Shown in pieces: positions 14,398 to 35,880 of a stretch of DNA of 64,000 nt; within the stretch, counting starts at the first letter, position 1; every line of letters begins with the position of its first letter. The notes below the pieces were generated by a model. It saw only the letters and a program-made list of their open reading frames with translations. It searched no databases and was not told the origin of the DNA. The translations under genes and the position numbers were made by a program. The stretch is taken from assembly GCA_951406725.2 (NCBI GenBank), contig OX597826.1:58962001-59026000 (forward strand), given 5' to 3'. This DNA comes from Octopus vulgaris. Taxonomy: Eukaryota.

Positions 14398-15180
14398 TTA
14401 TGAAGTATCATTTTCTTAAGAAATAATTATCAACTTTCAACTCTCCTTTTTCCTTTCTGCTATTAAGCGAAAACGGATTATATCCATAATGTATACCTAC
14501 TGATTTAGGGAAATTTTATTCCCTAAAAATAGTCCGCATAGAATCAATGTTTTCTTGGATGTAATCATTTCGTTATGAGGTTAATTTATCCTTTACTTAA
14601 CTTATATATATATATAGATATCACCTCAATATTAGCACCATGCGCTGTTTAGGCATAAGCAAACATTGGGTTAGTTAAAATATGTTTTAAATATTTCGTC
14701 TGCTAAGAGGCAAATTCGCTGCAGTTACCGCAGAGAAAACTTCTCTCCTATGGTAACAAGGTATAAAAACAGCATATATGCGCAGAGTCACCACCTATCG
14801 GATTCCCAGACATTGATGTTTCTAGGTTTTTAGTCGTTATCAATGGGAATTACGTACGAGAGACAACTCTGGACAAACCTTATCAAAGACACAGCTTTAA
14901 CTATGATAAAGTCAACAACGTCAACTGATTTGCTCCAGTAGATCACCGCAGTCGTGGAAATCACCGTAATATCAGCGCCAAGCAATATTCAGGCATAAGC
15001 AAACTTCATGTTAGCTAAAATGTTTAACACAATCTGACGGAAAGGGAATTGAGAGAGACGAAATACCAAATCAAGAGATTATGTGTGAAGGAAAAGATAT
15101 TTTATCGCGTGTGCATGTGCGTCTCTGCCTGACTGTGCATACATGTGTGTGTGTGTGGGTACGTATATATGAGATATGAT

Positions 15181-15223
<43 letters not shown>

Positions 15224-15279
15224 CATCTATATGTATCTGAGTCTCTTTCCTCTCTCTTTTCTGTCTGTCTGTCTATCTG

Positions 15280-15428
<149 letters not shown>

Positions 15429-15772
15429 ACGCGCTCACAGAATATACACATTACTGACATCTACGGTAGAAAGTGTGAGTTCTTTTGGAAAAAAAACATC
15501 TGTTTGTAATACAGCCTCACAACAGTGATTCCTGACACGTGTGGAGATCTTAACGTAAAAAATAAAACGGAAGAAGAAAAACCAATTTAGAAGAATACAA
15601 AATAGTGCGTTAAGAGATGGGATAAGCGGGGAAAAGTTATTCCGCCTTATAGATTTAGTCAAAGGTTTTAAAGTACAGGGGAATGCTTTTGATTCCTACT
15701 ACAATGCTCTCTCATTCATTCTCTCTAACTCTGCCTGTCTGTTCGTCAGTGTGTCTGTCTCTCTTTCACACA

Positions 15773-15837
<65 letters not shown>

Positions 15838-15872
15838 GCACACTAACGAACACGCAAATGTAAACGCGTACC

Positions 15873-16032
15873 GGCGTGGATTTGTGGTAAGAATTTTTGT
15901 TTCTCAACAGCATGGTTCGGTGTTTGGTCTGATTGCTTGGCACCTTTGAAAAGAGTCTTCAACTGCAGCCTTCAGACCGAACACACCCTTGTTTGTGCAT
16001 TTGGTAGACGGAAAAACTGAAAGAAACCCGTC

Positions 16033-16033
<1 letters not shown>
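15873..16033 (+). mobile_element. SINE family A, diverged 5' half
   Basis: Ends in ttggtagacggaaaaactgaaagaaacccgtcg followed by (TA)n, as in intact copies. Confidence 0.7.
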
Positions 16034-16110
<77 letters not shown>

Positions 16111-16317
16111 TGGGCCAAAGCTCGTGAGCTGAAACTAGATGAAATAAAAATAAAAAAAATATATATATATATATATTTAAAATATAAAATATAACCACTA
16201 TTATGCAACTCAAATAGTGATAGACATAAACCAATACATAAATAAATAATATATATTTTTATAAAACATATAACTTATAACTAGATCTCAAAAAGTATAA
16301 AAGGAATGATCAATATA

Positions 16318-16367
<50 letters not shown>

Positions 16368-16369
16368 TA

Positions 16370-16545
16370 CATGTTGTGTTCTTGAGCAAGACACTTTATT
16401 TTACGTTGCTCCAGTTCACTCAGCTGTAGAAATGAGTTGTGATATCACTGGTGCCAATCTGTATCGGTCTTTGCCTTTCCCTTTGGATAACACTGGTGGC
16501 GTGAAATGGGGTGGGTATGCATGGTAGACTGTTGGTCTTCCATGT
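16370..16545 (+). mobile_element. SINE fragment (additional family)
   Basis: gtgttcttgagcaagacactt...ctccagttcactcagctg. Related minus-strand fragments near 24750-24860 and 28310-28410. Confidence 0.6.
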
Positions 16546-16578
16546 ATGTATTAATGCGTGTATGTATGTATGTATATA

Positions 16579-17479
16579 TTGGGTCATCCCATAAATAATG
16601 CGTTTGTTAATACTTTATTTTATTTTTTATTTTTCAAAATCAAAATAAGCAAAGTTCTCTTTTAATCTAAAACATACTTTCCTTCATTTTCTACAATGCT
16701 CTTCGGTCTATCTGGGAGACTTGCAAGGCCCCCTCTTCCCAAATCCACTTGTTCGCGATGAAAAATACTCTTCCAGTACTGTTCTGACCTCGTCTGCAGA
16801 ATTCATATCTTTTCCGTCCAAATGATTTGGAAGACTGCGGAATAAATGTTAATCAGAAGGGGCAATGTCCAGTAGATATGGTAAGTGGGGCATCGTCTCC
16901 TATACAAGATTTTCCAGCCTTTGGAATGTCATCCTCGCTGTATGTGGCCGAACATTACCCTGATGGGAGAATGCATTTCGTCTTGAAACGATACATGGTA
17001 GTTTATCTTCTAGTGTAGTTGGCGATGAATGGTTGAAGGACGAAATCCAAGCTTCTCTGCTAGGTACTCAAGAGTTCCGATGGGATTTGTTTCTAACAGG
17101 GCTTGTAGGACGTCCCCGTCGAGCTCTACAGATCTTTCAGGACGGCTGTAGTTTCCGGCTCGGAATTTCTGAAATGACCGTTGACACGGGACTTACGCAT
17201 ATTTTCCGATCACCATATAATGCATTAATATTCCTCGCACTTTCCTTTGCGTTGTTGGCTTTATTCAACTTATAAAACAAAATATGCCGAATATACTCTT
17301 TTGTCACTTCCAATATAGCTTTGAAAAATGATTATTAAAATCGAACTGCAAACTTCAAAACTTGCACTAAGAATATGTCAAGGTAAAATTACTACATGCT
17401 TTTATAGAAATTGATGCAAGTAGTTTACGCCGCACCCTCCGACTTCATGCAAAACCGCTTTATTTATGGGATGACCCAA
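16579..17479 (-). mobile_element. Internally deleted mariner DNA transposon with both TIRs and TA target duplication
   Basis: TIRs ttgggtcatcccataaata / tatttatgggatgacccaa, flanked by TA. Minus-strand remnants read EYIRHILFYKLNKANNAKESARNI (HTH), HQGNVRPHT (HDNARPH-like) and PYLLDIAPSD*HLFRSL (YSPDLAPSD-like). Confidence 0.9.
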
Positions 17480-17663
17480 TATATATATATGTATGTGTAT
17501 ATATTTACATATATATATATATATGTGTACATATATATATATATACATATATATATACACCGAGTAAACACATAAATGTAAAACAAGGTGGAAAAAAGAG
17601 TACTCAAATACCAGGGGTAGAGTAATATGCTTTATTTCAAAGCAGCAGAAAATTCAACAAAAC

Positions 17664-17701
17664 CTGTTACTCTGAGTTTCACGTTCCCGTTCGTCGGACA
17701 G
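17664..17701 (-). ncRNA. Minimal type I hammerhead ribozyme motif
   Basis: Minus strand: ctgt-CCGACGA-acg ggaa cgt-GAAAC-tcaga-GTA-acag. Stems I, II and III all pair; the core has C at the variable position 4. Confidence 0.75.
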
Positions 17702-17747
17702 TTTTTGCTAGAATAGAATTGGCATATCGGTTCTATTCTGGCAAAAA

Positions 17748-17785
17748 CTGTCCGACGAACAGGAACGTGAAACTCAGAGTAACAG
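17748..17785 (+). ncRNA. Minimal type I hammerhead ribozyme motif
   Basis: ctgt-CCGACGA-acaggaacgt-GAAAC-tcaga-GTA-acag. Stem I ctgt/acag, helix III actc/gagt, GUA cleavage triplet. One substitution weakens stem II. Confidence 0.7.
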
Positions 17786-17856
17786 GTTTTGTTGAATTTT
17801 CTGCTGCTTTGAAATAATATATATATATATGTTTTAGATTAAAAGAGAACTTTGCT

Positions 17857-17923
<67 letters not shown>

Positions 17924-17955
17924 CATATATATCATGTAAATGCGTATATATATTT

Positions 17956-17991
<36 letters not shown>

Positions 17992-18008
17992 CCAAGTAAC
18001 GACTGGGA

Positions 18009-18080
18009 ACGTAAATTTTCCCTCCAAAATTCTGCCATGCGAAGGCGCGCATGGCGGAATTTTGGAGGGAAAATTTACGT
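18009..18080. repeat. 72-nt hairpin with 33-bp arms
   Basis: acgtaaattttccctccaaaattctgccatgcg / cgcatggcggaattttggagggaaaatttacgt, with one G-U-type mismatch and a 6-nt loop. Confidence 0.9.
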
Positions 18081-18535
18081 ATATATATATATATATATAT
18101 ATCTGTTCGAAAGCAATGGTTTCAAGGTGTATTGCCTATCATATATTTATACGTATATATATTTATACATATATATGTATCAATACGTGTGTTTTTATGT
18201 CTGTGTTTGTCCCCCTGCGTTGGTATGTTTACGTACCTGTAACCAAGCGGTTCAGTCGAATAAGTCCAAATTATAATAATGTAGTAATTTGTGTGTGCGT
18301 GCCATTAATTTCTTATTGATATGTATGTATGAATGTGTATCCGTGTTTAGAGTCATGAGTCTCTCCGCAAGATGGCATCCTAGTTTGTATGTGTGTTGTG
18401 TTGCATGTGGATACGTCTATGAAAATTGAATTTTGAATTATATTCGTATAGACTTTATAAGAATATATCATTAAATTTAATTATTTTATTTCACACACAC
18501 ACACACATAAACTAGGAGAAGTTAAAATTAGCCGC

Positions 18536-18795
18536 GTCACACATGCCTTCTGCGCATGCATGCTTACTGATGGTTACGACTGTGGTCACGTGATAGAAGT
18601 AATGGTGAACCGGTTCACCATTACCATCTCTCAGATCATTGATTTTTGTTCCTCTTTGGTGCACATTGCTAATGGCGCGGCCATACTTGCACCGTAAAAT
18701 CAGAAAGAAAAATGACGCGATCAGGCTCTCAAACTTCGATCACGTGACCACAATAGTACCTACTCTAAGTACACATGCGCAGAAGGCAATGTGAC
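18536..18795. mobile_element. MITE-like element with about 65-bp imperfect TIRs
   Basis: gtcaca..tgccttctgcgcatg...tgtggtcacgtgatagaagt is inverted at acttcgatcacgtgaccaca...catgcgcagaaggcaatgtgac. No coding capacity. Confidence 0.7.
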
Positions 18796-19029
18796 AATAA
18801 TCAAGATATACTATGACGAAAGTGCGAATTATTTTTGATCTATACACACACACACACACATATATGCATGCATGCACACACACACACATACATATACATA
18901 CATGCACACACATGCACATACCCGCACATACACACATGAACATATACATGCAAACACAGACACACACATGTGGAGCAAATATTGTTACAGATACTTTGTT
19001 GAATATTACGTCCGGGCTTTTACCTTTTT

Positions 19030-19430
19030 ATGGCTGTAGAGTACGGAATTTGCTTGCCAACTAAAAGGTTCCGAGTTCAGTCCCACTCAGCGGCACTTGC
19101 GGCAAGTGTTTTCCGCTATCGCCTTGTGAATGGATTTAGTAGACGGAACTGAAACAAGTCTCAAGTGTATCTATTTCTCTACCTATATCCATATGTGTGT
19201 GGGCAGAGGGGTGCCTTTATGTTTGTATCTGTCAACACACACTTCTTGACAAGCGGTGTTGGTTTGTTTATCATTAAATTTAACTTAGCGGTTGAGAAAA
19301 AGAAGCCGATAGATTAAGTACTAGGCTTAAAAGGAATTAATTAGTGATGGGATCAATTTGTACGAGAGGAATCCTTCAATTTGCTCCAGCATGGCCATAG
19401 AATATTGGGTAAAACAAGTTAAATGTAAGA
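19030..19430 (+). mobile_element. SINE family A, diverged
   Basis: gagttcagtcccact, gccttgtgaatggattt, aacttagcggtt, gatagattaagtactaggctt and ctccagcatggcc are collinear with intact copies. Confidence 0.75.
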
Positions 19431-19451
19431 GTTATTTTCATATTGTTGTAT

Positions 19452-19917
19452 TTAATCGACCCCCAAAGCGGAATTTGAACTCAGAACGCAGCGGCAGACG
19501 AAATACCTATTTCTTTACTACCCTCAAGGGGCTACACACAGAGAGGAGAAACAAGGATAGACAAACGGATTAAGTCGATTATATCGACCCAGTGCGTAAC
19601 TGGTACTTAATTTATCGACCTCAAAAGGATAAAAGGCAAAGCCGACTTTGGCGGAATTTGAACTCAGAACGTAGCGGCAGACGAAATACCTATTTCTTTA
19701 CTACCCACAAGGGGCTACACACAGAGAGGACAAACAAGGACAGACAAACGGATTAAGTCGATTATATCGACCCCAGTGCGTAACTGGTACTTATTTAGTC
19801 GACCCAGAAAGGATGAAAGACAAAGACGACCTCGGCGGAATTTGAACTCAGAACGTAGCGGCAGACGAAATACTGCTAAGCATTTCGCACGGCGTGCTAA
19901 CGTTTCTGCCAGTTCGG
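19452..19917 (-). mobile_element. Head-to-tail tandem of SINE family B (one full unit, one 183-bp unit, one partial unit)
   Basis: tatttctttacta recurs at 19508 and 19691; gcggaatttgaactcagaacg occurs three times. Confidence 0.9.
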
Positions 19918-21087
19918 CAATAACAATAAAAATAACGATTTAAAAATTGCTTCTTTTTCCTTGTCCTTAGTAAGGTTTCATCTCCAGGGGTCTTTTTACT
20001 CTGCTTTTATTGTTGTTCCTTTTTGTCCTAGGTGGGGGTTTAATTCTACATTCTCATGTAACTGTTGTTAAATGAAATTCTTCCAGCAGCTGTTGCACTA
20101 TATCAGTTTAGATCCATATGGATTTGTCTGTAGAGAACCATTTTCTGAGCAGCTTTCATCACTCTAAAAGGTTCTTCATCTGTATACATCTGTACAGAAT
20201 GGAAAGCCAGTCACTCGTCACCTTCTTATTAGTATTGGAGATGTCCTTTTAGACGAATCGTTTATTTACCATTTTTGATATGGTTGTTCTTAACCATGAT
20301 GTTGTTGTTGTTGCTGCTGTTGTTGTTATTCGTGTATCATGGTAATATTTTCCTGCTCTAGTTCTTGATGATATAGATGTTGATGCTGTTGCTGCTACTG
20401 CTGTTGTTGTTGCAAGTGCTGTAATAGTTGTTGTAGTTCATCATCATCATCATCTTCTTCTTCTTCTTCTTCTTCTTCTTCTTCTTCTTCTTCTTCTTCT
20501 TCTTCTTCTTCTTCTTTATTCTTCTTTTTCTTCTTTATTCTTCTTTTTCTTCTTTATTCTTCTTCTTCTTTATTCTTCTTCTTCTTTCTTTTCCTCTTAT
20601 TATTCCTGTTTTTCTTCTGTTTCTTCTATTCCTCCTTCTTTTCCTCCAGGCTTCTCAAGTTCACGTCGTACACATGTTCGAGCATCTGGTAGCAGTTACA
20701 CACACACACACACATACACACACACACACACATACACACAGACACACACAGACACACACACACACAACAGAGCTAGACGCAAACATTTCTCGCAGTTAGA
20801 GACATTAACAACACCATCTATATACATATACATACATAAGTACGCAGATATGTTTGTATGTATGTATGTATGTATGTATGTAAGTATGCATGCCTCTGTG
20901 TATGTGTATATATATGCATAGAGAAACACACACGTATATGCATGTGTGTATATATGTATATCCACACATACATAAATATATATGCATATATACATATATA
21001 CACATACACACACACATATATATGTATGTATGCATGTATGTATTTATATATATATATATATATATATATACATTTATATATATATAC

Positions 21088-35099: not shown

Positions 35100-35880
35100 T
35101 CCACATGATGAAATCATTATTAAGAAGGAGAGCAAATGTCTTTCTGATTATGGTGGTATCGAGTCCTCAATCTCTCCATGGTGACCACACGTGATAATAG
35201 TGGTAAGAAACAATGAGAAACAATGCTTTGTTATCACCTACTCACATACAATAAATTGCTACAACTTGCTAGATGTGAATCCATTTCCTAATATTGCCGA
35301 TCTCGTGCCTTCTATTTCCTGCAATAAATTCTATAGTAAATTGAATCTGAAAGCAGCATAGCATCAGATTCCGCTACACAATGACAATAAGCGACACAAC
35401 GCGCTTCGAGTTGATGATCGCTTATTCCAGTTTATAAGGTTAACCTTGGGCGTGTCTAATGCCGCAGGAGCTTTTCAATGTGTGATGGATGGTGTAATTC
35501 ACGACAAGGATATCAAAGGAGTTCACGCCTATCTCAACGATGTTATTGTTGTCAGCAAAACTATTGAAAAGCACGAAAGGAACTTGGCTCAATTAATTTC
35601 AGGTACCAAAAGGTTCAAAATTATAATTGAACAATAACAAATGTCTTAACCACCAAACATCCATTTTGCTATCTTGGATACAAAATGGAAAATAATTCAC
35701 TGCACCTTGATCCAGAAATATTAAAAACCGTTCGTTTATTACCAAACACCATAGCAATACTTAACAACTGCAATATCTATGAGGTTTACGTTACCACTCT
35801 AAAATGCATGTTTTCGTTCTTGGAACTAATTCAACCAGTTTTAAATCCTACATATCTTTTACAAGAGGTCGCCTAGAATA
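35100..35880 (+). mobile_element. Ty3/Gypsy reverse transcriptase fragment, pseudogenised
   Basis: One frame reads IESSISPW*PHVIIV...TYSHTIN...LDVNPFPNIADL...FYSKLNLKAA*HQIPL...LFQFIRLTLGVSNAAGAFQCVMD...AYLNDVIV...HERNL, collinear with Gypsy RT motifs (DL..AYHQI, PFG..NA, YLDD). Confidence 0.9.

Follow-up and report, generated by a model that had tools for sequence, protein, structure and literature searches.

Inverted pseudo-LTRs (pLTRs) with a tail on one end have already been described for Penelope-like elements (PLEs; PMC3846280; PMC8557442, Fig. 2 legend), and hammerhead ribozyme motifs have been noted on both strands of DNA as well: dual minimal hammerheads lie 100-700 bp apart on opposite strands in Schistosoma (PMC4209133), and Penelope-13_HM carries a hammerhead on both strands via an attached inverted 5'-truncated copy (PMC8557442, supplement). 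Hydra-clade PLEs are marked by (TA)n targeting and by the protein motifs RWK, DKT, CxCX5C, CxxC and CxH (PMC8557442), and many published Hydra hammerheads have unpaired bases at positions 10.1/11.1 (supplement of the same paper). In vitro, the Poseidon PLE nicks and extends both strands, with reverse transcription starting at two internal sites that bound the tail; this element is predicted to be dimeric, and its hammerhead mutants still insert (PMC11167929). How tandem and inverted PLE structures form has been named an open problem (PMC8557442), and self-priming on an antisense template has been proposed for the junction palindromes of Adineta Penelope elements (PMC3846280; all as given in the accessible portions of these papers).

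The palindromic double hammerhead analysed here is a known kind of structure. It lies in a window of Octopus vulgaris genomic DNA (the whole stretch analysed, 64 kb), where the arms at 17632-17718 and 17731-17817 pair as an inverted repeat around a 12-nt spacer with two mispaired sites (17688/17761, C/A; 17709/17740, T/G). Folded as RNA, the repeat has an MFE of -156.1 kcal/mol (z = -26.7), matched by 0 of 200 shuffles, and this together with the arm pairing bears out the 87-bp arms with two mismatches given in a preliminary description of this DNA. The right limit proposed there (17632..17817) held as well; the left one did not, as the element reaches 17560, 72 bp further left. The whole insertion, 17560..17817, consists of two head-to-head 5'-truncated pLTR ends between a (TA)n-rich target tract on the left (17477..17559) and a second (TA)n tract after 17817, and no target-site duplication is discernible within these flanks. 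It aligns to an ORF-bearing copy (L142) as two oppositely oriented segments and has the same outline as loci L002-L030. The long distal-end (D) arm occupies 17560..17718 on the minus strand and runs from 21 nt upstream of the hammerhead position C3 via the hammerhead and AATAAAG into a 70-nt tail (17560..17629, minus strand), which lies between the proximal and the distal end site and in tandem copies continues into the 5' leader of the ORF (pLTR plus tail, then ATG, in L140). The short proximal-end (P) arm, 17713..17817 on the plus strand, runs from 39 nt upstream of C3 to AAATAA, followed by (TA)n. Alignment of the two arms as a head-to-head D/P pair supports the inverted pLTR structure suggested earlier. 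Comparison with the unfolded copy L113 further revealed that both arms have in common a 6-nt junction microhomology, ATAGAA (17713..17718), and that the spacer (17719-17730) is no designed loop but family sequence from the upstream part of the P arm.

Read in sense, both arms give the series CTGT / CCGACGA / stem II region of 10 nt / GAAA / CTC-A-GAG / TA / ACAG, and a type I hammerhead motif is indeed present on each strand. The left-arm hammerhead (17664..17701, minus strand) has C3 at 17697, a U4C core and a 3-bp stem II with a GGAA loop, and its predicted cut (GUA) falls between 17668 and 17667; the right-arm hammerhead (17748..17785, plus strand) has C3 at 17752, the same U4C core, a stem II damaged at 17761 and a predicted cut between 17781 and 17782. 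U4C departs from the canonical CUGANGA in both arms, with all other type I core positions present (C3 U4 G5 A6 N7 G8 A9, G12 A13 A14 A15.1 and U16.1 H17 were checked). Stems I to III surround this core: stem I comprises 4 bp, a mismatch and 8 bp, stem III is palindromic as dimer formation requires, and stem II has only 2-3 bp, with CG-GNRA-CG flanked by A and one variable base, and is broken in the right arm by the change at 17761. The G10.1-C11.1 pair that closes stem II is absent, with A at 10.1 in 258/258 arms and A (145), T (62), G (45) or C (6) at 11.1; core conservation among the fetched arms is biased by the search patterns and is no proof of selection. A search with hammerhead models, put forward in the preliminary description, came back negative in that none of the 101 Rfam matches at E<=10 in 15000-20500 covers the repeat or belongs to a hammerhead family, which leaves the motif and its published relatives as the grounds for the assignment.

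Secondary structure prediction placed the monomeric hammerhead fold above the ensemble by 4.4 (left arm), 7.8 (right arm) and 6.6 kcal/mol (CUGA variant). Two sense CUGA copies cofold into a dimeric hammerhead as the MFE structure (-26.2 vs -24.0 kcal/mol for two monomers), and the dimeric fold of the window left arm lies 1.6 kcal/mol above its cofold MFE, in support of the view that this is the minimal, dimer-dependent kind of type I hammerhead. Full-length tandem RNA supplies two sense copies and the palindrome no such pair; within the full palindrome, a ribozyme fold is predicted to cost 92-97 kcal/mol relative to the hairpin. Of the two fates envisaged earlier for a transcript, folding supports the long dsRNA hairpin and disfavours self-cleavage, because motifs on opposite strands offer no sense-sense dimer and the hairpin wins by this margin. 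U4C lowers activity in vitro, yet is tolerated in a viroid (PMC3088659, accessible portion). Judged from its core and its folding (U4C, and a right arm minus one stem II pair), the ribozyme of the window copy is most likely inert, and a read-through transcript of this copy would at most form a long dsRNA hairpin. The hammerhead would instead serve the tandem RNA of the parent as a dimer, possibly assisted by protein, and be inert in the palindrome.

In the 2.8-Gb genome (227 contigs), a DNA search returned 2,611 candidates, 40 of them scored, and exact copies of a 42-mer numbered 2,856. Exact motif counts were 3,622 for the canonical CUGA core and 1,900 for the CCGA (U4C) core versus 0 for reversed controls, giving at least 5,522 exact hammerhead-motif copies, so that the copy number of the arm, for which the preliminary description had proposed a genome-wide check, is in the thousands. 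All 30 loci fetched with the window query (L001-L030) were head-to-head pairs, with (TA)n flanks in nearly all, a sample biased by the query and for this reason left out of the end tally below; the samples in general are the first coordinate-ordered matches of exact patterns and favour well-preserved arms. The preliminary description had called the locus a young non-autonomous derivative. Neither part found support in the comparison: the window copy belongs to the older U4C subfamily (24 arms, 2.4% mean divergence, vs 0.8% for 11 arms of the CUGA group), the centres vary among copies, exact arm pairs are spaced anywhere from 42 bp to 5.4 kb apart, and an identical junction occurs on different subfamily backgrounds. 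Variable centres and spacing and the mixing of junctions and backgrounds imply that the palindromes are most simply made afresh from the RNA of an autonomous element. Older, diverged relatives of this pLTR with an eroded core are seen at L061:1629-1778 and upstream of the match in L114.

Walking upstream from longer copies led through a ~1.1-kb 3' UTR to the end of an ORF, and when this endonuclease-coding end served to fetch 20 loci, 19 of them had a sense hammerhead ~1.1-1.2 kb after the stop. The proposed PLE origin is thereby supported and linkage to a PLE ORF shown, the motif lying downstream of an RT-GIY-YIG ORF. Same-strand neighbouring motifs are ~3.4 kb apart with the ORF between them. 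In the partial tandem L140, a pLTR that contains hammerhead and tail is followed by ATG (206 nt after C3), an open 711-aa frame, 3' UTR, hammerhead, AATAAAG and (TA)n. Read by motif, the 711-aa frame contains YRDD at 344 and VY..YTG at 582, along with RWK at 37, DKT at 113, CxCX5C at 562, CxxC at 667 and CxH at 695; Pfam and PDB sequence searches with the ORF gave no match. By motif, a single ORF with RT plus C-terminal GIY-YIG endonuclease is thus linked to the pLTR, as in the Hydra clade, and insertion into (TA)n, another trait of this clade, recurs across the fetched loci. The architecture is that of EN+ PLEs, with partial tandems forming pLTRs in L140, L141, L193 and L194, and with inverted 5'-truncated copies bearing a tail on one end (the D/P pairs tallied below). 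On its motifs, the parent is a Hydra-clade PLE, its similarity to the listed Hydra proteins being judged by eye, and the family is a new family of a known kind of element. The window locus is a 5'-truncated head-to-head insertion of this PLE in (TA)n, that is, ordinary retroelement debris. Broken ORF pieces of another PLE-like RT family lie beside one fetched copy (L116:5600-7900, plus strand).

Compared with the accessible portions of the literature, the octopus family resembles Hydra-clade PLEs (Craig et al. 2021, PMC8557442) in its C-terminal GIY-YIG, motif set, (TA)n target and hammerhead in the 3' end, and differs from the published ones in its 1.1-kb 3' UTR, its 70-nt tail and the U4C core of at least 1,900 copies. 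The coral Hydra-2_aMil (PMC8557442, Supplementary File S2) shares its stem I (ctgt/acag), its stem III (actc-N-gagt) and its GUA site with the octopus family; its stem II has 4 bp, that of the octopus family two pairs plus GNRA. Hydra-1_Obim is set apart by another hammerhead and by an ORF that differs by eye. Head-to-head pLTRs, a junction palindrome and a one-sided tail are common to EN+ PLEs (Arkhipova et al. 2013, PMC3846280), unlike which the octopus family often leaves nothing but the pair, a large share of its insertions having no ORF. Poseidon_Ac (PAc; Frangieh et al. 2024, PMC11167929) likewise has two RT start sites, an AT-rich target and a hammerhead in the pLTR-ORF region, but belongs to another clade, its tail measures 30-40 nt rather than 70, and its hammerhead overlaps the start codon instead of lying 206 nt upstream of it; pairing of both sites per insertion goes unreported for PAc in the accessible part of that paper. 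Metazoan PLE hammerheads of the minimal kind (Cervera and de la Pena 2014, PMC4209133) are also dimer-dependent with a palindromic, near-absent helix III, whereas the octopus helix II is shorter than usual, not longer, and is without the G10.1-C11.1 pair. Finally, non-LTR retrozymes (bioRxiv 10.64898/2026.07.22.740005) are PLE-related and have type I hammerheads, but consist of head-to-tail non-coding tandem units with a hammerhead in each, an arrangement that we did not find for the octopus stub, which is head-to-head and derives from a coding element.

The stub sits among other repeats, and no host gene was recognised in the 64-kb window, where Pfam matched 2 of 66 ORFs, both RVT_1 (fragments at 653-1231 and 35362-35634). 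A decayed mariner-type element occupies 16569-17489 on the minus strand (HTH_48, E 3.3e-8) with inverted ends at 16569-16605 and 17453-17489, and the stub lies in (TA)n just past its end. The 33 bp at 17828-17860, between (TA)n tracts and 10 bp from the P end, are identical in inverted orientation to the mariner-internal 16644-16676 and may be an insert templated locally. Another small palindrome lies in (TA)n at 17992-18079, its two head-to-head arms again unequal in length. It is a fragment of a different family (327 candidates); the window piece has no ribozyme, and elsewhere this family forms tandem and inverted units of ~555 bp with a canonical type I hammerhead in another part of the unit and is retrozyme-like. 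Other repeats are found at 19468-19937. At L011:1745-2150, a different repeat family that also targets (TA)n (1,291 candidates) and also makes tandem and inverted copies follows the D end without a gap, and the junction is likely a template jump. We had considered this 3' extension a continuation of the element and rejected it, since it belongs to that other family and since among the matches listed for 30 loci fetched with it an arm stands beside it only at L031, the locus of L011 itself.

Arms of the family end either at P, after AATAAAG, or at D, 70 nt further out, and nearly every sampled head-to-head insertion has one end of each kind. Among 128 fetched loci (68 behind the first 100 canonical-motif matches, 30 42-mer loci and 30 -17-pattern loci), 71 of 74 head-to-head insertions were D/P, none D/D or P/P, and 3 had one atypical end; the tally leaves aside arms without a partner, inversions that are internal and have no 3' end, and pairs separated by >450 bp of unaligned DNA. 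This gap rule excludes L204, whose two like ends stand against a strict D/P rule: two identical arms, both starting at -5 and ending 11 nt past P, face away from each other, and the 1.2 kb of other DNA between them includes an inverted repeat of host DNA, so that the locus resembles a later inverted duplication. In the 57 D/P insertions with measured 5' reach, the arms were within 10 nt of each other in 33, the P arm was longer in 10 and the D arm in 9, and in 5 a tail-only D arm did not overlap the P arm. At three diagnostic sites 71 of 80 core pairs agreed; the nine disagreeing pairs comprise 2 separate neighbouring insertions, 1 indel artefact, 2 apparent point changes and 4 subfamily-site differences. 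Of the last four, three (L008, L025 and L070) pair subfamilies that differ at no fewer than two diagnostic sites, suggesting that one insertion can be served by two RNAs. Agreement in subfamily was nonetheless the norm for older-subfamily pairs (30/35; mean 11.0 and maximum 22 in 10,000 shuffles), so a single template fits as well as two and one template is often enough. A rule of one site per strand is stated in none of the papers that we found, and subscription papers, figures and some supplements may bear on it.

The upstream ends of the arms are clustered too. Among 118 arms (L144-L211; positions relative to C3, with -4 to +29 required in anchor arms), 38 have their end at -9 to -19 (3.45 per nt) versus 3 at -20 to -60 (0.07 per nt), the others at 0 to -8 (13), inside the core (6), at -61 to -300 (10) or beyond (48). 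Exact arms with a non-C base just before -17 number 260. Among 30 loci of this type, 2 are point variants in which the family sequence goes on upstream; all others begin at exactly -17, next to the partner arm, (TA)n or other flanking DNA. Position -17 falls on the A in CCATTCT, a word that fits the initiator consensus YYANWYY; the position is also the base of extended stem I in the predicted fold. This edge is likely the 5' end of an RNA. A cap-derived extra G before -17 was considered and is not claimed, the preceding base being G in 39, T in 34 and A in 27 of the first 100 arms listed (hand count), with most G explained by the partner arm. In L218/L219 and L224/L225, both arms reach -17 exactly, and the 4-7 nt that link them are copies of family sequence close by. 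The window arms reach -21 and -39, beyond the edge, so their template must have run further upstream (the 3' pLTR or another start).

The parent ORF with its linkage, the (TA)n target, the two fixed 3' ends with one of each per insertion, the variable junctions and the 5' pile-up are all observed, and the reading that we favour, at a probability of roughly 80%, is that the locus is a truncated Hydra-clade PLE insertion whose two head-to-head ends likely represent one cDNA per fixed start site, made at nicks in (TA)n. The enzyme of the element would nick both strands of the (TA)n tract, one cDNA would be primed at each of the two fixed RNA start sites, and the two cDNA ends would then anneal, in the window copy through the 6-nt microhomology; we infer that a dimeric RNP would carry out such twin priming. 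The published account of PLE head-to-head junctions is a different one (PMC3846280, accessible portion), in which one cDNA (or antisense RNA) folds onto itself at a short palindrome and serves as its own template. Many junctions do lie at the self-complementary words CTAG, ATAT and AATT, small snap-back inserts exist (the -17 pairs above), and the predominant agreement of arms at the diagnostic sites is what a self-copy would give. However, a fold-back cDNA cannot copy what the template arm lacks, so that a single such cDNA cannot account for P arms that outreach their tailed D partners or for pairs that do not overlap; subfamily-chimeric arms speak against self-copying as well, and fold-back gives no reason why the second arm always stops at the other fixed site. 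Non-overlapping and chimeric arms already contradict self-priming as a general route, and we regard it as unlikely; D/P pairing, the fact that either arm may be longer, non-overlap and subfamily mixing favour twin priming over it.

Less probable still is a palindrome that moves as a non-autonomous, retrozyme- or MITE-like unit by means of its ribozymes: the many copies have a fairly uniform size of ~240-260 bp and some junctions (CTAG, GATATC) recur exactly, but arm spacing is continuous over its whole range, an identical junction is found on different subfamily backgrounds in both arms, there are no tandem units, and the ribozyme is locked by the hairpin. As for a fold-back artefact of assembly or library, contigs of four public runs contain the family at high depth, but no listed piece extends across the window locus; the different family end positions of the arms, their two base differences and the genuine spacer and microhomology junction make it unlikely, dozens of other loci are built alike, and we give an artefact next to no weight. 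Beyond twin priming at the window locus, we put at about even odds the wider proposal that asymmetric twin priming is obligatory in Hydra-clade PLEs, with a dimeric RNP opening (TA)n and placing one subunit at each site, at times with two RNAs, and with run-off at -17 of the 5' pLTR giving strong-stop-like hairpins. Priming in the 5' pLTR copy would yield run-off cDNAs of ~84 and ~155 nt and hence most mini-palindromes. Against the twin-priming reading, no strand difference in RT start site was seen with the Poseidon PLE (PMC11167929, accessible portion).

The near-strict rule of one long and one short end is likely a record of the way in which RNA is copied by the enzyme into the two strands of a DNA break. 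The family is useful: its young insertions number in the thousands, its ORF is open, both end sites are mapped exactly and the 5' edge is sharp, and these features together separate twin priming from self-priming and define substrates for in vitro work. The wide spread of subfamilies whose core has U4C and whose stem II has an unpaired base is in line with ribozyme cleavage being dispensable for insertion. Obligatory asymmetric twin priming, if true, would account for the inverted pLTRs of all EN+ PLEs and for their tail on one end only, and many hundreds of 85-bp sources of dsRNA against the element's own leader would have been seeded in the genome.
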